Assembly: GCA_040235515.1 (NCBI GenBank)
Contig: JBECKX010000036.1
Span: forward strand, 1 to 11,926
DNA length: 11,926 nucleotides
From: Candidatus Zixiibacteriota bacterium
Lineage (GTDB): Bacteria; Zixibacteria; MSB-5A5; CAIYYT01
Direction: 5' to 3'
Below the pieces are notes generated by a model that did no database searches, was not told where the DNA came from, and worked only from the letters and a program-made list of their open reading frames with translations. The position numbers and the translations under genes are program-made. The stretch's first letter is position 1. Each line of letters begins with the position of its first letter. Positions 1,666 to 11,340 of the stretch are shown here, piece by piece.

Positions 1666-2799
1666 ATGAACGAAGCAGGCAGGTCGTCGGAACCCGGCGA
1701 TCGAACTCAATCCGCTATGGTTGATGCGAGTGCTCTCTGCCTCTCCGGTGGAGGCTATCGTGCGATGGTCTTTCATATCGGTGCGCTATGGCGGCTGTAC
1801 GACGCAGGGCTTCTTGGCACGATCGATCGGATTTCGAGTGTGTCGGGTGGCTCGATCACTTCAGCCGTACTCGCGCTGAACTGGAACAAATTGACGTTTG
1901 ATCCTGCCAATTTGCAGCAAGATTTTGTCCCCTGCGTCGTTGAACCGTTGCGGACGCTTGCTTCGACAACGATTGATGTACCTGCGATCCTGCGGGGGCT
2001 GTTACTGCCGGGAAATGTTTCCGACAGAATAGTGTCATACTACAACAATATCTTATTCGATGGGGCATCACTGCAAGACCTTCCCGATGCGCCCCGGTTT
2101 GTGATCAATGCAACCAATCTGCAATCAGGCGTGCTGTGGCGCTTCTCGAAACCATACATGCGCGACTACCGCGTGGGAGAGATTGAGTCACCGGATCTTG
2201 AAGTAGCGCGCGCGGTGGCTGCCTCCTCGGCGTTTCCACCATTCCTTTCACCGGTAATACTCAAGCGGCAGACCTCCGACTACGTGGCCAATAGCGGTAC
2301 CGATCTGCAGCGTGAACCGTACACTACCCGGGTTGTGCTGAGTGATGGCGGCGTGTATGACAATCTCGGGCTGCAGACCGCGGAAAACTTCAGGATGATT
2401 CTCGTGAGTGATGGCGGTGGACAGATGCAACCTCAGCCGAAGCCGAGGGGATTCTGGCCAATACAAATGTATCGCGTCCTGAACGTGATCGACAACCAGG
2501 TACGGGCGCAACGGAAGTCAAATCTGATCGATGCATATATCAAGGGCGACCATAGCGGCGCCTATTGGGGTATCAGGACAGATATCGCCGACTACAAGTT
2601 GAGTAGCGCGCTCGATTGTCCATACAAGCGGACGCTGGAACTGGCGGCAACTCCGACGCGTCTGAAGGCGATGGCGGCACTTTTACAGGAACGCTTAATC
2701 AATTGGGGCTACGCGGTCTGCGATGCGGCGCTGCGAAAACATGTGGATCAACAACTCCAGCGGCCCGCAGGCTTCCCCTATCCGAAAGCAGGGGTGTAA
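1666..2799 (+). CDS. Patatin-like phospholipase (PNPLA)
   Basis: Gly-rich oxyanion motif LSGGGYRA, nucleophile elbow SSVSGGS (S60), AVAASSAFPP, catalytic LSDGGVYDNLG (D227). GAGG RBS upstream of ATG 1666. No signal peptide. Confidence 0.93.
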   Translation: MNEAGRSSEPGDRTQSAMVDASALCLSGGGYRAMVFHIGALWRLYDAGLLGTIDRISSVSGGSITSAVLALNWNKLTFDPANLQQDFVPCVVEPLRTLASTTIDVPAILRGLLLPGNVSDRIVSYYNNILFDGASLQDLPDAPRFVINATNLQSGVLWRFSKPYMRDYRVGEIESPDLEVARAVAASSAFPPFLSPVILKRQTSDYVANSGTDLQREPYTTRVVLSDGGVYDNLGLQTAENFRMILVSDGGGQMQPQPKPRGFWPIQMYRVLNVIDNQVRAQRKSNLIDAYIKGDHSGAYWGIRTDIADYKLSSALDCPYKRTLELAATPTRLKAMAALLQERLINWGYAVCDAALRKHVDQQLQRPAGFPYPKAGV

Positions 2800-2802
2800 A
2801 TC

Positions 2803-4785
2803 ATGACAAATGGGGCAACGGGCATTCGTGTCCCGGATCAACTCGTTGAGTGTATCTTACTGGGTCCAGCGGAGGATCGGCAACTCCTCCAGGACTCACC
2901 GGTTCTGGCCGATGTTTGGCTGGCGTACGCAAAGGCGCCTGACCAGCCGCAGGATCTACTGATCACACCACACCTGGAGATTGCATCGAGTCGGGTGGCT
3001 GCGGCGATCAAAGCCGGACTGGGACATGTCGACTCACTCGATTCCACTGACACAACAAAGCGGGAGATTCCGCCACGCATTGCATACCTTCAAGGGGTGG
3101 TGGCGGCTAAAGTGTACTTCTATGATGTCGCCCGCATCCTGGTACCGCTAACCCTCTGGTGGGAACGGTTGGCAAAGGCGGAGAGGGTAATCTCGCGGAG
3201 GAAGAAGAACAAGTATTCGCGGGAAAGGATTGAACGGGCGCTGGGTATCTGCCTGGAGAGATTTTCCCGAATGCTGCAGGATCAGCCACTGGAGGCGGAT
3301 CCGATTGAAGCGTTTGACCGTTATGCAGTGCTATCTTCTCTGATACTCTGGGCTGGTCAGCAAGGAGACGAGCAATTGCAGGAGCTGTCGGCTGAGCAAT
3401 TTCTTGACGCGATCAGGGAGGCGAAGCAGCCGTCACCTGCCGCGCTGTTTCACCAGATGCTTGAGGATATCAGAGGCGACTACACCGGCTGGCTCGCGGA
3501 GTTCTTTGAACGAATGCTTGAGTTTCAGGGCAGGCAGAAGTCGAAACCGGGGGCGAAGCGACTGCAGAAGGAGGAACTGGTCACTCACCTGATTTTCAAT
3601 ATCTCCTTAAATCGCAAGGCTAACCATGCTCTGAAGAAATCTGTTCCTTCGGTTAAGGCGGACGCCGTCAAAAGCCTGTTTGAGGTGCGCTGCAACGAGA
3701 TTACCTGGGCGATACTCGATTCCGGCATAGATGGGGCTCATGACGCGTTCCGCAGTGACACATCAGTGAATGGCTCCTACAAGAACTCCCGCGTGATCAG
3801 GACATTCGATTTTACGCAAATCCGCGAGATCGTCAGCGGCGATCAGATGAGTGACAAAGCGTTGAGGGAAATCAGCGGAGAGGACCTTGACCTCAAAACC
3901 ACGAAGAAGCTGAGGGAGTCGCTTGAGGAGGATATGCTGCTGGAACGGCCACTCAACTGGAAGGTGGTCGAGCGGTTCGTGAAACGCGATCAGCCGGCTA
4001 CGCCCTCGAACTCACATGGCACCCATGTGGCTGGAATCCTCGGAGCTGCGAAAGATCCAGCGGACACTTACCCACCCGGAATGTGTCCCGATATCAGGCT
4101 TTACGATTTCAGGATACTGGGCAGCAAATCGGAGGATACCGAGTTCGCGATTCTGGCGGCGCTGCAATACATTCGTTATCTGAACGAGCAACATGGTTTC
4201 AGAGTCATTCATGGCGCCAATCTTAGTCTCTCGATCCTGCACGACGTTAAGAACTTCGCCTGTGGCAGAACACCGATTTGCGATGAGTGCGAACGACTGG
4301 TCAATAGTGGTGTGGTGGTGGTTGCCGCCGCCGGGAATCACGGTTACCAGTCATTTCACACCGTCGATGGGGTATTCTCAGGCTATGCCGCCTCCAGCAT
4401 AACGGATCCGGGCAATGCCGATGCCGTTATCACGGTGGGGGCAACTCACCGATCGTGGCCGCATACGTATGGTGTCAGCTACTTCTCCAGCCGGGGTCCG
4501 ACCGGCGACGGCAGGACGAAACCAGATCTGGTTGCCCCCGGTGAAAGAATTCAGGCGCCGGTTCCGGGCAAGGACAACGATTGGGAGGAAAAGTCGGGTA
4601 CGAGCATGGCTGCGCCGCATGTGAGCGGAGCCGCCGCGATGCTGATGGCACGTTATCCGGAGTTGATCGGACAGCCGAGGCGAATCAAGGAGATACTCTG
4701 CAATACCGCCACCGACCTCGGTCGCGAACGCTGCTTTCAGGGGCATGGAATGCTTGATGTGCTACGGGCATTCCAGTCTATCTGA
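2803..4785 (+). CDS. S8 (subtilisin-like) serine peptidase with ~290-aa N-terminal extension, cytoplasmic
   Basis: Full triad: AILDSGID (D306), HGTHVAGIL (H405), SGTSMAAPHVSG (S601); oxyanion AAAGN (N512); FSSRGPTGDGRTKPDLVAPG. Starts 3 nt after the patatin stop. No hydrophobic signal peptide. Confidence 0.95.
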   Translation: MTNGATGIRVPDQLVECILLGPAEDRQLLQDSPVLADVWLAYAKAPDQPQDLLITPHLEIASSRVAAAIKAGLGHVDSLDSTDTTKREIPPRIAYLQGVVAAKVYFYDVARILVPLTLWWERLAKAERVISRRKKNKYSRERIERALGICLERFSRMLQDQPLEADPIEAFDRYAVLSSLILWAGQQGDEQLQELSAEQFLDAIREAKQPSPAALFHQMLEDIRGDYTGWLAEFFERMLEFQGRQKSKPGAKRLQKEELVTHLIFNISLNRKANHALKKSVPSVKADAVKSLFEVRCNEITWAILDSGIDGAHDAFRSDTSVNGSYKNSRVIRTFDFTQIREIVSGDQMSDKALREISGEDLDLKTTKKLRESLEEDMLLERPLNWKVVERFVKRDQPATPSNSHGTHVAGILGAAKDPADTYPPGMCPDIRLYDFRILGSKSEDTEFAILAALQYIRYLNEQHGFRVIHGANLSLSILHDVKNFACGRTPICDECERLVNSGVVVVAAAGNHGYQSFHTVDGVFSGYAASSITDPGNADAVITVGATHRSWPHTYGVSYFSSRGPTGDGRTKPDLVAPGERIQAPVPGKDNDWEEKSGTSMAAPHVSGAAAMLMARYPELIGQPRRIKEILCNTATDLGRERCFQGHGMLDVLRAFQSI

Positions 4786-4871
4786 GTCGTCACGATGCAG
4801 TCGCGGATACTAATCAGACTATATAGCGAGTATCTACACATACACGAAATCTACCAAAAAGGAGTGCTACA

Positions 4872-6128
4872 ATGAGATTCAGTATGGATGTGTTACGCGC
4901 CCGCAAGGGCGATTGCCTGATGATTCATTTCGGGGATAAGGATGATCCGCACTTGATCATGATTGATGGCGGGCCTTCCAAGGTCTACCGTCCGCACCTG
5001 AAGCCGAGAATCGAGAAGATCCGCAAAGCCCGGAATCTCGGTGACAACGAAGCACTACTGGTTGACCTGCTGATGATCAGCCACATCGATGATGACCATA
5101 TTCGTGGAATCCTCGAACTCACGCGCGAATTGTGCGAGCGAAAGCGTGCCGATCGCTCGTTGCCCATCAGGGTGGCGAGCCTGTGGCACAACTGTTTCCC
5201 CGACATGCTTGATGTCTCCGGGGCGCAGCTTTCCTCGATGGAGTCTACCGCAACCGCATCGATTCGTGATGAAATCGGACTGTCGGAACAGGCATTCGAG
5301 GAGTTTAAATCGGCAAATATCCTGGCGAGTGTGAGCCAGGGGAATCAGCTGCGCCTGGATGCGAAGTTCCTGAAGTGGCGGATTAACCGGGAAGTCGCCG
5401 GTAAACTGATCGAGGCAAAGAGCAGATCGAAGCAGATCAAGCTTGATGGCGGCGTGAAACTCCGGGTTGCCGGGCCGATGAGTGGTGAATTGAGCAAACT
5501 CAAATCATCATTCAAGAAATGGGCGGCAGAGAATCCTGACAAGGTGAACGAGGGGGCGGCACTGGCGGAATTTGTCGACAAATCCGTTCCCAACCTGTCA
5601 AGTCTGGTGCTGCTGGCTGAAGTGAAGAGGAAGACAATGCTCCTCACCGGGGATGCGCGCGGGGATAAGATCATCAAGGGAATGGAACTGACCCGGATGC
5701 TGAAGAAGGGGAAGAGCCGTCACGTAGACCTGTTGAAGGTGCCGCATCACGGCAGCGCGAACAACCTCGAGACGTCATTCTTCGAACGATTAACCGCGGA
5801 TCACTATGTATTTTCCGGCAACGGCGAGCATGGCAACCCTGAACGTGAATCGCTCGAGATGCTGCATGAAGCGCGCGGCAACGATGACTACGAAGTTCAC
5901 CTCACCTACCCGATCGATGAAATCGACGCAGAGCGAAAGAAGGATTGGGAGAAGCAGCGTGCGAGAGAGAAGAACCGCCGTGGAGGCAATCCACGCCCTG
6001 AGTGGTCGGCAAAGAAAAACAGCCTGAAAGCCTTCCTCGCCGCAAACGGCGATTTCGCTCGAAAGGTGAGAATCGTCGATGAAAACAAGCCGCACATGAT
6101 CGACCTGCTTGATGCGGTGAAGCTGTAA
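4872..6128 (+). CDS. MBL-fold metallo-hydrolase, ComEC/Avs1a-like (putative nuclease)
   Basis: GDC, IDGGP, SHIDDDH (H71-x-D-x-D-H76), WHN, SVSQG, DxSxxNxSS, LLTGDA, LLKVPHHGS, SGNGEHGNP motifs; strong RBS AAGGAG at 4859-4864; basic protein without TM segments. Confidence 0.9.
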   Translation: MRFSMDVLRARKGDCLMIHFGDKDDPHLIMIDGGPSKVYRPHLKPRIEKIRKARNLGDNEALLVDLLMISHIDDDHIRGILELTRELCERKRADRSLPIRVASLWHNCFPDMLDVSGAQLSSMESTATASIRDEIGLSEQAFEEFKSANILASVSQGNQLRLDAKFLKWRINREVAGKLIEAKSRSKQIKLDGGVKLRVAGPMSGELSKLKSSFKKWAAENPDKVNEGAALAEFVDKSVPNLSSLVLLAEVKRKTMLLTGDARGDKIIKGMELTRMLKKGKSRHVDLLKVPHHGSANNLETSFFERLTADHYVFSGNGEHGNPERESLEMLHEARGNDDYEVHLTYPIDEIDAERKKDWEKQRAREKNRRGGNPRPEWSAKKNSLKAFLAANGDFARKVRIVDENKPHMIDLLDAVKL

Positions 6129-6169: not shown

Positions 6170-7678
6170 TCAGGCAGTATATCGGCCTGAACTGGCTTTG
6201 TCTCCGAAATCGTTGATCTTCAAGTCGGAGAGGGTCACGACATGCCCGGTGCCGGTCAAATCAAGTACCCCGTGGGTTCTGCGGTAGCTTACATCATTGT
6301 AGAGTGTGTAAGTCTTACCGACAGGAAGCTGAAATCTTACCGACGAGATCTGGTTGTTCATCATCTGTCCGCCAACATAGATATCGCTGAAATTGGTGAG
6401 ATTGGTATTCCGAGTGCCGATGAGACCGATGCAGCGACCGCCGCAGGAGTCGTGTTCGAACAAATCAATCCAACCTTCCTCCGGATCGTCGATGACGGAG
6501 GGGGTGAAATCGGACGAGATCGGCCTGAACTCGCAGAAGTTAATGCCGTACTTCCTGGTGCTGTATCTTTTCTTGAAGCCACTGCATGAATGTATTGAGA
6601 TTCCGCCACGCTGGTCGATGAAGAGACCGGCGCCCGCATCCATATCGAACCAGTTGTGATCAGACTGCAACCTTAGTGTCGCGGATTTGACCAGTGTCCG
6701 TACCTCGGAAGCGAGATAGGCGCCGGAGGAGGGAGGGCCAGTGTCGAATCTGACTTCGAACAAGTCAGCGACATTGGGAGCCCCCAGGTGCCCGGCCGTG
6801 CCGACGTTGTGGAAGCCAACCAGATAGAGTCTGTCATCACGCTGCGCGACGAACTGGAGGCACTGATACTCGCCGAAATCAGGGGTCAGCCCCGGTTCGC
6901 TCAAGGTTTCGGTGCAATCGAAGGTAAAGGTCTTCGTGATTCCTGATTTGTGAAGCTGGTTGCGATTGAACGAATAGAAATCAAGCTTGCGCCGCTCGCC
7001 CTCGGAGTAGTAGACTGCGGCAAACAGTTCACCACTCTCGGCAGCAAAGAGCGCAACAGCGCCGGCCTTCTTGCCGGGGCGATCGATCGAGAACTTCATC
7101 ACCGCCGGCTCTTCCGGATAAGTGGTATCGAAGAAGAGGACCTTGGAGCCATCTTCGGGCAACAAGCCTTCAACCGGCACAGCCAAAAGAGCACCGGCGT
7201 TTGCGATGCCCCCGGCGTGCCAGTGTTTGGAGGTGAGTCGATGAGCTTGCTTGATCGTGCTGTTTCTATTGAGACCAATCGTGAGAAGTATCTCGTCGGC
7301 GTCTGCCGGCTGGTTGCGATAGATACAATTCGAGCGCCAGGGGAGGGTGTCGCTCCTGGAGGGGAGCGCGGCAAAGAACAAATGGGATGCTTGAGCGTCG
7401 GAACTGCAACCCGACATCACGAGGCTGGCGTGATGATCCAGTCGTTGGATTCCCTGAATATGGTTGCGGCGACCGAGCGCGGCTTGAAGCTTGTACTCGC
7501 TGTATTCGGCAGCAGGTATGAATTTCTCGCACCACACCGAGAGGCGGTCACCGACGGTGGAGATCTTTGAGAATGCCTTGGGGACGTCGACAAGTCGCCG
7601 GCTTGCAATGGCCAGCGGTGTCACCCTGGTGGCTGTGCTGACTAATTCCGGGTTGTAGTACTTGTATCTCTTTGGCAT
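6170..7678 (-). CDS. Uncharacterised protein: probable beta-propeller N-terminal region plus C-terminal betagamma-crystallin domain
   Basis: RBS AAGGAGG before ATG. The last ~100 aa carry two Greek-key signatures (LFEHDSCGG...MNNQISSVRF; YTLYNDVSY...FGDKASS). The N-terminal part has recurring short beta-strand motifs (HIQGIQRL, HAGGI..AGALLAVPVE, KVLFFD, AGAVALF). Confidence 0.75.
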   Translation of the reverse strand: MPKRYKYYNPELVSTATRVTPLAIASRRLVDVPKAFSKISTVGDRLSVWCEKFIPAAEYSEYKLQAALGRRNHIQGIQRLDHHASLVMSGCSSDAQASHLFFAALPSRSDTLPWRSNCIYRNQPADADEILLTIGLNRNSTIKQAHRLTSKHWHAGGIANAGALLAVPVEGLLPEDGSKVLFFDTTYPEEPAVMKFSIDRPGKKAGAVALFAAESGELFAAVYYSEGERRKLDFYSFNRNQLHKSGITKTFTFDCTETLSEPGLTPDFGEYQCLQFVAQRDDRLYLVGFHNVGTAGHLGAPNVADLFEVRFDTGPPSSGAYLASEVRTLVKSATLRLQSDHNWFDMDAGAGLFIDQRGGISIHSCSGFKKRYSTRKYGINFCEFRPISSDFTPSVIDDPEEGWIDLFEHDSCGGRCIGLIGTRNTNLTNFSDIYVGGQMMNNQISSVRFQLPVGKTYTLYNDVSYRRTHGVLDLTGTGHVVTLSDLKINDFGDKASSGRYTA

Positions 7679-7732: not shown

Positions 7733-8860
7733 CTAGTTCCAGTGTTCGTCGAGCCAGCCGCTGAAACCGGTGGTGTGCCAATCAAGATCGGCTCCGAGGA
7801 TGGCTCGATAGCGCAGCCCGACCGGATGCTCGTTCAGTTTCACGCGTTCCTGCGGCGGTTTACTGACGTCGCCGTGGACATACTCCACCACAGTGATCTT
7901 TTCGGGGCTGAGGTGGGCGAGCCCGCGTTGGAACAGCATCGCGACTTCGACATCGTCAGAGGGCAGGCTGTACCCGATTATGATAGCGCGGGTTGCCAGT
8001 CTGAGCGCATCCTCGGCTCGACTCCAAACCTGAGAAACATGCTTGTTCTCATAATCTTTGATGAAGGTCGGCGTTATGAGGATTGGACGAACGTAGCCGT
8101 CGCACGCCGGGTTCTGACACTTCGTCCCGCGACAGCTGTAGGCTCGCTGTGAAATCTCCTCATGGTAAAGTTCATCGAGCGCCTTTTCGGTTTTCATTTG
8201 TTTGGTTATGAAGAGATCGAGCCGCTGGCAATGGTCGCAGTAGAGCCAGTTCAGCGAGCCATGAATCTTGAGCAGCTTGCCGAAAGTACCTCTCTCGGTT
8301 GCGTACAGATAGCGATCGGTTGAGAAGTCAACGCCATAGTCAGGGTATTGACCATTTCGCTCCGCCAATCTCAGCATGACGTTGTCAACGATGACGTCGT
8401 AGTTGAGAGAAATCACGAGAGGTTCGATGCCCCGGTCATACAAAGGCTCGAGCAACCGGGTGTGCGGGTTTCTGCCGCTCATCCGCGAATGTCTGAGTGC
8501 CGCCTCAATGGCTGCGAAGACGCCGTACTCGACGGCGCGTCTTGCGTCGGTGAGGTCATCTCCGGCGTAGTTGCCGATTGAGAGGTTGGAAGTTTCGGCC
8601 CGTCTGATCATGCTGAGGACCATCGGCAAATTGGGGCAGTCTTCCTTCGTGATCGTACCGCCGTGGTTGGGAACGTGAAAGCAATCGACCAGGAACCGCC
8701 TGGTTAGTTCAAGGAGGTTCTCGCGGTCGACGACATCCACTTCAAGATTTTCGTTTTCAAATCTGCCATTCAACGCTGCGGGGAGGATTTCATCTGTCAG
8801 CGGTCCACCGCAATCCTTTGTCGCCCCGGCGCCAAGAATGATCACCGGTCTTTCAATCAT
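7733..8860 (-). CDS. SIR2-like (SIR2_2-type) protein with Zn-ribbon insert, putative NADase
   Basis: IILGAGAT..GGPL, VISLNYD (N153), LLKIHGSLNW (H200), CDHC (C208/C211) and CQNPAC (C248/C253), LITPT, IIIGYSLP; RBS AAGGAG. Confidence 0.9.
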   Translation of the reverse strand: MIERPVIILGAGATKDCGGPLTDEILPAALNGRFENENLEVDVVDRENLLELTRRFLVDCFHVPNHGGTITKEDCPNLPMVLSMIRRAETSNLSIGNYAGDDLTDARRAVEYGVFAAIEAALRHSRMSGRNPHTRLLEPLYDRGIEPLVISLNYDVIVDNVMLRLAERNGQYPDYGVDFSTDRYLYATERGTFGKLLKIHGSLNWLYCDHCQRLDLFITKQMKTEKALDELYHEEISQRAYSCRGTKCQNPACDGYVRPILITPTFIKDYENKHVSQVWSRAEDALRLATRAIIIGYSLPSDDVEVAMLFQRGLAHLSPEKITVVEYVHGDVSKPPQERVKLNEHPVGLRYRAILGADLDWHTTGFSGWLDEHWN

Positions 8861-8921: not shown

Positions 8922-9965
8922 TCAAGCTTTCAGGTGCCTGGCGATGTCGTTATTGGTAAGCCAGCCCAGAATCGGTTCATCAGCCTTACCCGACTTAGTC
9001 ACGAAAACATCCTGGCAGAATTCGATCGCTTCCATTCGCCGTTTTGCATCCTCGACCGATGTATCCGGGGAGACAAACTCAACGGAGTCGCGCACCAGCA
9101 CACCATTCTGATCCTCAGCGATGAAATCCGCCAGCGTGAGCAGGGAGAGCTTGTTGACATCCTGATTGCTGTCATAGCTGTGACGAGAAATGAACTTGAA
9201 CAACAAACTCTGGTGGATGATGTAGCGCAGTCGATTTTGTGCGTCGACGACCGGAATGCGCGTTACAGGACCTTTGTAGATATCGTAGAGATCCTTGATC
9301 AGGACATCGCTGTCGGTCTTGTCTTCCGCCATGCGATAGGTGGTGATGTTTTGCAGCTTCAACATGACATCCTTGACCGGTACCGGTTCGCCGAGTTTGT
9401 CCTCTCTCTCGGCATCGCCACCGCTCTTGAAGAGGGAGTCGAAGACTTCGCGCAATTTATCTGCCGCCTGCTTCGAAAACATGCCGGCCAGTCCGGTCAT
9501 AGCAGCAACGGCGTAGGGGTCGAGACTTGGATTTTCATCGCCGGCGATGCTCATCATCAAGCCGCCGCGAAAAGCGAAGTAGACCATCAAGGCCAATGCG
9601 ATGCCGATGAATGGACGCATATAGTACCACCAGTACCAGCTGCTGCGCATGCTGCGGTTCCCAACATAGGAGACATAGCTGGTCGCGGCATGCACGAAGC
9701 TCCCCAATCCCCCGGACAAAATGACAAGCAGAAGTAACCTTGTTTCGCCGGTTACGGTGCACCCCCAGATGAAGAGCGCCGCCGATTCTTTCCAGATATT
9801 TTCTGCATCCCCCGTTTCGCAGCAGATTGTGATCAGAAAGAGGAGCAGAATCAGGAACACCAGTGCGAGCACCAGACCAAGGATTAGCTCCCCGCGTCGT
9901 TTCTGTGGCTCTTTAGCGGAATCAGGCGTAGCCTTCTTCTCGTCTGTAACGACTGTACTACTCAT
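8922..9965 (-). CDS. Membrane protein (about 4 TM helices) with C-terminal CBS-pair-like domain
   Basis: Hydrophobic segments at about aa 27-47, 77-95, 118-137 and 151-164, with GGLGS...YVGN...WYWWYYMRPFIG...GMFSKQA; then VKDVM, TRIPVVD...YII, FVSPDTSVEDAKRRM...DVFVT...ILGWLTNNDI, matching a tandem CBS (Bateman) pattern. Confidence 0.8.
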   Translation of the reverse strand: MSSTVVTDEKKATPDSAKEPQKRRGELILGLVLALVFLILLLFLITICCETGDAENIWKESAALFIWGCTVTGETRLLLLVILSGGLGSFVHAATSYVSYVGNRSMRSSWYWWYYMRPFIGIALALMVYFAFRGGLMMSIAGDENPSLDPYAVAAMTGLAGMFSKQAADKLREVFDSLFKSGGDAEREDKLGEPVPVKDVMLKLQNITTYRMAEDKTDSDVLIKDLYDIYKGPVTRIPVVDAQNRLRYIIHQSLLFKFISRHSYDSNQDVNKLSLLTLADFIAEDQNGVLVRDSVEFVSPDTSVEDAKRRMEAIEFCQDVFVTKSGKADEPILGWLTNNDIARHLKA

Positions 9966-10294: not shown

Positions 10295-11248
10295 TCAGAC
10301 GACCCCGGCCTTTGATGCAGATTCTTTACGCGAAGCAGTTGAGGCTTCAGCTTGTGTCGAGGGAGGAAGGGTGATACGGAACAGAGCGCCTTTTGCGACG
10401 GGAACGAACGCGATCTCTCCCTTATGAAACTCAACGATCGTTTTGACGATCGCCAGCCCAAGCCCGGTACCATCGTCTTTGCCGAAAGTAACGAATGGCT
10501 CGAACAGCTTGTCATGGAGTTGTTCAGGCACTCCGGAGCCACTATCCTCTACTTCGAGTGTAATCTTGTCACGGCCCGCCTGAAGCCGCAGCACTGCCGT
10601 GTCGCCGGAAGTGCAAGCTTGCAGTGAATTGCTGAGGAGATTGATAATCGCCCGCTCCAGCTTGCCGGCATCTCCCATAATGGTAACCGGTTCGTGGCCG
10701 GCGGGAGAGTTCTCAAGCTTCAGACTGACTCCACGTTTGTCAAAGACCGGCCTGATCGAGGTGATCACGTTCTCGCACATGGCACTGAGGTTGACTGCAG
10801 AGCAGGAGATTTTCAGGTTTCCTCGGGAGAAATCGAGGATGTCCTGGCTCAGGGATAGCATCGATTCGATTCTGTCATCAATCAACCGTTTGTATTCTGT
10901 GCGCTCGTCATCCGATGAGTCCTCGAGGGAATAGAGGTCAAGCCCCGACTTGATGACATGGACCTGGTTTCGCAGATCGTGCACGATCGTGGCGGCCGCC
11001 TGTCCGATGACGCGCAGGCTCTCGGCACTGCTCGCCCGGGCGGCGAGGCGCTTGAAGATGATAAAGACAAAGGTGGCAGACATCAGGACGAAGAATGATC
11101 CTTTGACCGTCTGGACCCAGCTCAACTCGCTGATGCTGTGTGCCAGCTGTCCGAAGATTAAGTCTGTCGCGAATATCCAGATTGAACCGGCGATGAAATA
11201 GTAGACAGCAGCTCTTAGTGCAATCCTGTTGTCACTCCGCTTGGACAC
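10295..11248 (-). CDS. Two-TM sensor histidine kinase (HisKA + HATPase_c)
   Basis: H-box IVHDLRNQ, N-box INLLSNS, G1 EDSGSGV, F-box LFEPFVTFGK, G2 GTGLGL; N-terminal 2-TM motif Y....GSIWIFATD...QTVKGSFFV. Start moved from the track's 11335 to GTG 11248, which has a GAGGGGAG RBS 6 nt upstream (317 aa). Confidence 0.92.
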   Translation of the reverse strand: MSKRSDNRIALRAAVYYFIAGSIWIFATDLIFGQLAHSISELSWVQTVKGSFFVLMSATFVFIIFKRLAARASSAESLRVIGQAAATIVHDLRNQVHVIKSGLDLYSLEDSSDDERTEYKRLIDDRIESMLSLSQDILDFSRGNLKISCSAVNLSAMCENVITSIRPVFDKRGVSLKLENSPAGHEPVTIMGDAGKLERAIINLLSNSLQACTSGDTAVLRLQAGRDKITLEVEDSGSGVPEQLHDKLFEPFVTFGKDDGTGLGLAIVKTIVEFHKGEIAFVPVAKGALFRITLPPSTQAEASTASRKESASKAGVV

Positions 11249-11340
11249 GGGAAGCTCCCCTCGGTGGTCAAAAAATCGATGCCCCTGTCGCACGGTGGCG
11301 ACACTCGGTGCAGCCCTTAGAAGAAATAAACTCAACTGTT

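Follow-up and report, generated by a model that had tools for sequence, protein, structure and literature searches.

What does a patatin-like lipase gene do in front of a subtilase gene and an MBL-fold hydrolase gene, and do the three make up one protease-triggered defence switch? The window, i.e., the whole stretch of DNA that was analysed, is a complete contig of 11.9 kb from a genome of 3.6 Mb that holds one strong copy each of patatin, S8 and MBL.

The locus, its linkage and its surroundings

The first-pass annotation had described three co-oriented genes with intact catalytic residues and no signal peptides. The layout was confirmed (Table 1; gaps of 3 and 86 nt), and the catalytic residues of patatin, S8 and MBL are intact. 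By a simple hydrophobicity scan, used in place of SignalP, no 19-residue segment of patatin, S8 or MBL exceeds 1.31 on the Kyte-Doolittle scale, in line with the claimed lack of signal peptides; homologues of the trio start at the same places. Likewise, no STAND/AAA ATPase, cyclase or gasdermin was found by Pfam among the eight main ORFs of the window. The patatin-S8-MBL linkage is above chance, since a Sinorhizobium meliloti plasmid carries the same three-gene order (58/46/46% identity) with a first gap of 3 nt as well. Promoter or terminator signals above chance were not found at the locus; the GC content of the operon (53-60%) resembles that of the genome (55%), and this lack of a compositional anomaly was counted against a defence switch.

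Table 1. Features of the patatin-S8-MBL locus (positions in the window).
Feature	Position	Strand	Basis
Patatin-like phospholipase, 377 aa, optional accessory gene	1666..2799	+	Pfam; found in 7/22 related S8 loci
S8 subtilase, predicted zymogen, 660 aa	2803..4785	+	Pfam, alignment, structure model
S8 N-terminal region, aa 1-276, propeptide-like beta strands	2803..3630	+	model matches pro-subtilases
Helical insertion in S8 propeptide, aa ~106-257, candidate regulatory/sensor element	3118..3573	+	DSSP of model
ComEC-like MBL-fold hydrolase, 418 aa, predicted pro-nuclease	4872..6128	+	profiles and model
MBL gate insertion 1, aa 110-153; predicted cleavage sites A129 (5256-5258) and A152-S153 (5325-5330)	5199..5330	+	conservation, low pLDDT
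MBL short insertion 2, aa 217-236; conserved A232 (5565-5567)	5520..5579	+	conservation, pLDDT 69-77

Conservation of the pair: The S8 family is large: of 7999 proteins scored, 3515 reached E <= 1e-30, and the top 120 were about 50% identical and nearly all full length. For comparison, 22 loci beyond the window were collected in which S8 has both its N-terminal region and its catalytic domain; 16 were obtained via the S8 query alone, and six via the MBL query, which makes these six biased. Duplicates (copies of the window and of L001/L110) were removed, as was L109 (G555), where S8 lacks the N-terminal region and MBL gave no match; L002 was dropped from the genome-contig scan (weak 57-residue match beside one true locus); the metagenome scan gave 79 loci, mostly generic subtilases, 7 of which had the N-terminal region and catalytic domain and were counted. 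An MBL homologue lies directly downstream of the clade S8 in 21/22 loci (gap 11-190 nt); in the sole exception, L006, the contig ends 3 bases past S8. Among the loci of the S8 query (n = 16), MBL is next in 15/15 having downstream DNA. Natural MBL-S8 single-chain fusions were found as well (P0017, P0254), and with these the neighbourhood check proposed in the first-pass annotation bore out a conserved S8-MBL linkage. The core of the module is S8 plus MBL.

Distribution: MBL was present in 2/285 genomes of the host phylum (that of the window included) and in 0/20 of the host family; S8 in 10/401 Acidobacteriota genomes, in one of them without the N-terminal region. The module occurs on rhizobial and other plasmids, conjugative ones included, and is chromosomal in many lineages; no MBL relatives were found in viral contigs. 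The distribution is sporadic, which was counted in favour of a defence role. In P0193 (1297 aa), a STAND-type ATPase and an MBL of this clade form one chain. Another MBL of the clade is joined to TPR repeats (P0313, 1848 aa), and the HxDxDH motif was not found in it.

Neighbours of the pair: TIR and NB-ARC genes (L001), SIR2 (L089), IS elements (L085) and a kinase (L102) were observed next to S8-MBL. On a Methylorubrum plasmid (L086, 3567-10242), cyclase, E2-domain and TIR genes, which we take to be a Pycsar-like set, run straight into S8-MBL; hybrid or stacked systems are possible there. The surroundings with TIR/NB-ARC, SIR2, IS elements or the cyclase-E2-TIR set were counted for a defence role. 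Six loci (L003, L004, L005, L101, L104, L105) have housekeeping surroundings with no defence neighbours recognised by Pfam, which was counted against a defence role. In L087 (10133-11440) a DUF2235 gene, presumably of the alpha/beta-hydrolase lipase family, follows S8-MBL, perhaps in the patatin slot.

Other genes of the window, all on the minus strand: 3-1298, member of a membrane protein family present in several copies that, by eye, resembles glycosyltransferases; 6170-7678, 502 aa, no Pfam match, convergent with the MBL gene, Atlas feature score of 0.98 against an unnamed 486-aa cluster; 7733-8860, SIR2-like protein, 375 aa (PADLOC SIR2 E 5e-5), containing a Cys-rich insert, which may be an NADase within the small island that includes the trio and of which no close homologue was found among the fetched loci; 8922-9965, 347 aa, multi-pass membrane N-terminus and CBS domain, co-oriented with the SIR2-like gene; 10295-11335, ordinary histidine kinase. 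The best relative of the left-flank gene (47% identity, L140) has different neighbours; synteny there is too weak to point to an empty insertion site.

The subtilase and the gate of the hydrolase

S8 subtilase: The catalytic domain was matched by PF00082 (E 3e-41, aa 302-647); D306, H405, N512 and S601 each reach a conservation of 90% or more in an alignment of 41 homologues. The structure model (pLDDT 72, pTM 0.82) had as its best matches the unprocessed pro-subtilases 3afg, 3whi, CspA and CspC, with alignments starting at residue 26-50 (3afg: Z 26.9, rmsd 3.3, 363 aligned). S8 is accordingly predicted, on the model, to be a propeptide-bearing zymogen. In the model the strands of the propeptide are broken by ~150 helical residues (DSSP), and this helical insert is variable in the homologue alignment. 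A276, at the end of the propeptide region, is invariant (41/41 rows), which fits an Ala preference of S8, and is the predicted maturation junction. An Atlas search with the N-terminal region gave only leads below 0.9 (Y4kK N-terminal domains, CspB prodomain). No sensor gene was found in the operon and none is conserved across the S8 loci, which makes the helical insert the best sensor candidate and the only element that could back the first-pass view of S8 as the sensor. The PADLOC "subtilase" profile also matched S8 (E 2e-43); we take this profile to belong to gasdermin loci.

MBL hydrolase: The Pfam match was weak (PF00753, E 0.06), and the PADLOC profiles of MBLs of Lamassu, DRT and AVAST matched well (LmuA-MBL E 3e-50, RTasMBL 4e-33, Avs1a 1e-29). 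Residues H71, D73, D75, H76, D261 and H292/H293 are present. The model (pLDDT 92.5; lower confidence at 121-150 and 221-240) was closest in fold to the ComEC MBL domain 9ic4 (E 1e-10), followed by the phosphorylcholine esterase Pce. D261 corresponds, by a position counted by eye, to the GD aspartate D276 of VcMBL, mutation of which abolished defence according to the accessible text of PMC12642450. Homologues become DNases when cut after Ile in two insertions, as described in the accessible parts of PMC12642450 and PMC12799240. On the model and these homologues, MBL looks like a gated pro-nuclease.

Candidate cleavage sites: Over 60 close MBLs (59 of them homologues without genome context, not all with established S8 linkage) the following were conserved: A129, 49/60; A152, 57/60; S153, 53/60; A232, 57/60. 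Elsewhere insertion 1 is variable, both in sequence and in length (26-59 residues, as measured on the 53 rows that the search pattern matched). Five positions ahead of the G in the QG motif, S8-clade rows have Ala (7/8); the 5 rows of Avs1a, Lamassu and serine-protease type have Ile (3), Val (1) and Thr (1), and the 4 caspase-type rows have L, Y, L and F. In the part of the published trypsin-clade alignment that was accessible (PMC12642450), most rows have Ile-Ser at the position equivalent to A152, so that A152 is in register with the cleaved Ile of the trypsin-linked homologues. A232 is out of register with the trypsin-clade site of insertion 2; this insertion is ~17-27 residues long in S8-linked MBLs vs ~32-57 in the trypsin type, and is also shorter than in the caspase-linked ones. 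By analogy with these homologues, we infer an Ala-specific cleavage of MBL at A152 plus A129 or A232. The conservation of A152 and A232 could instead be structural, since the model places A152 in a long helix (139-166) and A232 in a short one, and cutting would need local unfolding.

The patatin gene, the proposed mechanism and its alternatives

Patatin: The protein was matched by PF01734 (E 6e-20) and has GGG 28-30, S60 and D227; the nearest solved sequences (ExoU, cPLA2, VipD) were all weak. Neither PADLOC nor NCBIfam gave a match for the window protein, and the comparison with the CBASS effector CapV made in the first-pass annotation was dropped on this ground. Among the 22 S8 loci, the gene is present in seven, always co-oriented and once after MBL (S8-MBL-patatin, L108). 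In 401 Acidobacteriota genomes the patatin clade was found in 15 and full-length S8 in 9; both share 3/401 genomes, in one operon each time (hypergeometric p 0.003, overstated, kin not being independent). Two genome samples gave 21 patatin places besides the window. Protease-MBL operons account for 8 of them (4 S8, 2 caspase, 2 HExxH metallopeptidase); the other 13 lie outside such operons, which was counted against the proposed switch; three of the five other places in the host phylum are among housekeeping genes. For 13 of 35 plasmid matches the surroundings were examined, and MBL was within the fetched stretch in 11: S8 2, metallopeptidase 6 (three close kin, one 3.6 kb distant, one divergent), caspase 1 (divergent), E2-E1-JAB 1, no protease seen 1. 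Some plasmid patatin loci adjoin CBASS and Hachiman genes.

A single clade of the eight S8-linked patatins was rejected (p-AU 1e-5, 31 rows), which implies repeated gain or repeated loss. The claim that patatin is a fixed third component could not be kept: it is present in the minority of S8 loci and is polyphyletic there. The clade is fused behind nSTAND1 in 27/69 longer matches and can thus serve as an immune-type effector domain; S8-patatin fusions were not seen among these 69, which is weak evidence. Patatin is an optional accessory, likely recruited by such switches several times. Aligned patatins are compact and lack variable insertions in their interior. The N-terminal tail (24 residues, acidic, proline-rich; Met 24 before Cys in 105/118) has a conserved PV, lost in the window copy, and no conserved Ala-Ser; judged on sequence, it is the only possible cleavage target in patatin.

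Other patatin operons: Seven loci (L091, L093, L094, L096, L100, L116, L118; e.g., L093:5965-10620) combine patatin, an HExxH peptidase and a divergent MBL. The peptidase (~630-720 aa, cytoplasmic, thermolysin-like) occurs on rhizobial plasmids beside CBASS/Hachiman genes; its tentative assignment as a metallopeptidase draws on the HExxH motif and on Pfam M4 at E 0.002 in one homologue only, and no PDB sequence match was obtained. It is possibly a fourth protease class for gated MBLs. Operons of patatin, caspase, an uncharacterised protein and MBL were observed at L115:2233-7136, L139:2309-7101 and L095:2363-6942; in the MBL of L095 a short ESLG motif is repeated in both insertions. At L097:2535-8092 the order is MBL, E2/E1/JAB, patatin of the same clade, DUF6615, and this operon adjoins BREX-type genes (DUF1788, DUF1819).

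Proposed mechanism: With a rough probability of 0.57, S8 of the linked pair cuts an MBL insertion and the resulting DNase kills or arrests the phage-infected cell, patatin being an optional, repeatedly recruited second effector. S8 would be held off by its own propeptide (predicted fold; inhibition as in other subtilases). An infection signal would then free S8; this is the weakest step, and the signal would most plausibly be read by the helical insert of the propeptide or be delivered by a neighbouring system. Free S8 would cut MBL after Ala, most likely at A152, also at A129 or A232, as trypsin- and caspase-linked homologues suggest, and the opened MBL would degrade DNA non-specifically, an activity shown for homologues in the accessible literature. 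Patatin would add membrane damage; its switch would be other than an internal gate, e.g., loss of the N-terminal tail or oligomerisation. By analogy, S8 thus likely activates the MBL nuclease. The first-pass proposal that S8 cleaves MBL and/or patatin accordingly stands as likely for MBL and finds no support for patatin, which shows no cleavable internal insertion and is polyphyletic next to S8. The evidence supports a conserved, cytoplasmic, protease-gated module of defence type; its anti-phage role is predicted. A wider version of this reading is tentative and, as a whole, rather doubtful: the switch would be self-contained, the insert-enlarged propeptide being the phage sensor and one activation leading to death via DNA and membrane; the patatin clade would be a plug-in co-effector that subtilase-, caspase- and metallopeptidase-gated MBLs had each taken up separately (the last a fourth class, not named in the accessible text of Evans et al. 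and Tuck et al.); and the nuclease gate would be re-tuned for each protease (Ile to Ala, second gate shortened).

Alternatives: A direct cut of both MBL and patatin by S8, e.g., with removal of the 24-residue tail, is unlikely, although it would account for the 3-nt patatin-S8 gap here and in S. meliloti, for the retention of patatin in the operon despite the changed order in L108, for a tail of fixed length (105/118) with its PV, and for the recurrence of patatin with three protease classes. Against it are the compact alignment, the missing Ala-Ser in the tail with PV absent from the window copy, and many close patatin relatives outside any protease-MBL operon; furthermore, the S8-linked patatins are not one clade and hence have not co-evolved with this S8. 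If patatin acted upstream, by sensing or making a membrane lipid signal that frees the protease, it would be the missing sensor and not an effector. Its gene often leads the operon, and it accompanies protease-MBL pairs in which no ATPase sensor was recognised (L103, L106, L110, L115, L116, L139); this reading is nevertheless very unlikely, patatin being absent from 15/22 S8 loci (although in two of these less than 1.5 kb lies upstream), one lipid signal having to activate three unrelated protease folds, and the fusion behind nSTAND1 seeming to fit an effector.

The same cleavage chemistry might serve an addiction (toxin-antitoxin-like) or a stress/developmental death module instead of phage defence. 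Another system with an S8 protease, IetAS, was originally reported as a toxin-antitoxin pair of a plasmid. Occurrence on conjugative plasmids and between IS elements, the missing sensor gene and the many loci without defence neighbours also speak for such a module; it is considered improbable, with no conserved antitoxin-like partner found and chromosomal copies in many lineages, and every protease-MBL pair tested in the accessible parts of PMC12642450 and PMC12799240 was anti-phage. The lowest probability, a shade below that of a patatin acting upstream, was given to a metabolic operon in which patatin and a Pce-like MBL phosphodiesterase degrade lipids and S8 is a maturase: Pce as second fold match and the housekeeping surroundings of three of the five other host-phylum patatins agree with it, but the profile match to defence MBLs is far stronger, and the gate-like MBL insertions, the sporadic distribution and STAND fusions of both MBL and patatin are against it.

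Comparison with known systems

Membership in AVAST type 1, IetAS, CBASS or gasdermin systems was not indicated by Pfam, PADLOC and NCBIfam. AVAST type 1 was rejected: Avs1a scored 145 bits, below the NCBIfam cut-off of 420, and no STAND or trypsin gene, as the trypsin-STAND Avs1b would require, was found among the window ORFs. IetAS shares the S8 catalytic domain (PADLOC IetS, E 3e-10) and was rejected at 25.5 bits by NCBIfam (cut-off 900), with no AAA ATPase in the window. CBASS with CapV, to which patatin fold and catalytic dyad are common, was rejected with no cyclase or CapV match among the ORFs scanned, and a bacterial gasdermin system with no gasdermin among the six ORFs scanned with PADLOC.

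According to Evans et al. 2025 (PMC12642450), there are three clades of protease-associated MBLs, and Clade 3 adjoins S8 subtilisin-like proteases; in the accessible text the experiments concern the trypsin clade, and subtilisin-clade modules are said to have distinct sensor associations. The window locus shares with Clade 3 the MBL beside an S8 subtilase, the metal-binding motifs and the gate-like insertions, and differs in having no sensor gene; its MBL is homologous to Avs1a/HamM with intact metal ligands and stands beside an intact S8 in a conserved linkage. In that text Clade 3 is given as a clade of a tree only, without experiment, cleavage site or patatin; six related MBL accessions (five S8-linked) are absent from the accessible supplement tables, which apparently cover the trypsin clade only. 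The statement that the combination is not a named system therefore holds for the patatin-S8-MBL operon and not for the S8-MBL pair. The operon was not found in the literature within view, which included PMC12642450, PMC12799240, PMC7159879, PMC8195603 and PMC13069673 and stopped short of subscription journals and some supplements and figures; the protease-gated MBL kind and the S8-linked clade are, from the same sources, already known.

The work of 2025 established protease gating of nucleases with trypsins and caspases as partners, and the subtilisin branch was named without experiments, as far as the accessible texts go. The locus and its relatives from cultured strains, S. meliloti M270 (with patatin) and Methylorubrum extorquens CM4 (without), allow a direct residue-level test; how a sensor-less module is triggered and whether a lipase plugs in as a second effector become testable.

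With HamM, Avs1a and VcMBL/AtMBL (accessible parts of PMC12799240 and PMC12642450) the locus has in common a homologous ComEC-like MBL, a first cleavage position in register, and a separate nuclease gene beside the protease. It differs from these trypsin-linked systems in its free subtilase with a propeptide (there, trypsin fused to a STAND/Hachiman/Lamassu sensor), in Ala at the P1-equivalent position (there, Ile), in a second insertion of ~17-27 residues (there, ~32-57), and in the nuclease gene being downstream of the protease, unlike theirs. In Canu (KaeCanABC; PMC12799240) a caspase plus CanB takes the place of S8, and the main text and one supplement of Tuck et al. mention neither subtilisin nor patatin; common to Canu, as described there, and to the window locus are the protease gene in front, a gated MBL downstream of it, no ATPase sensor, and variable extra genes.
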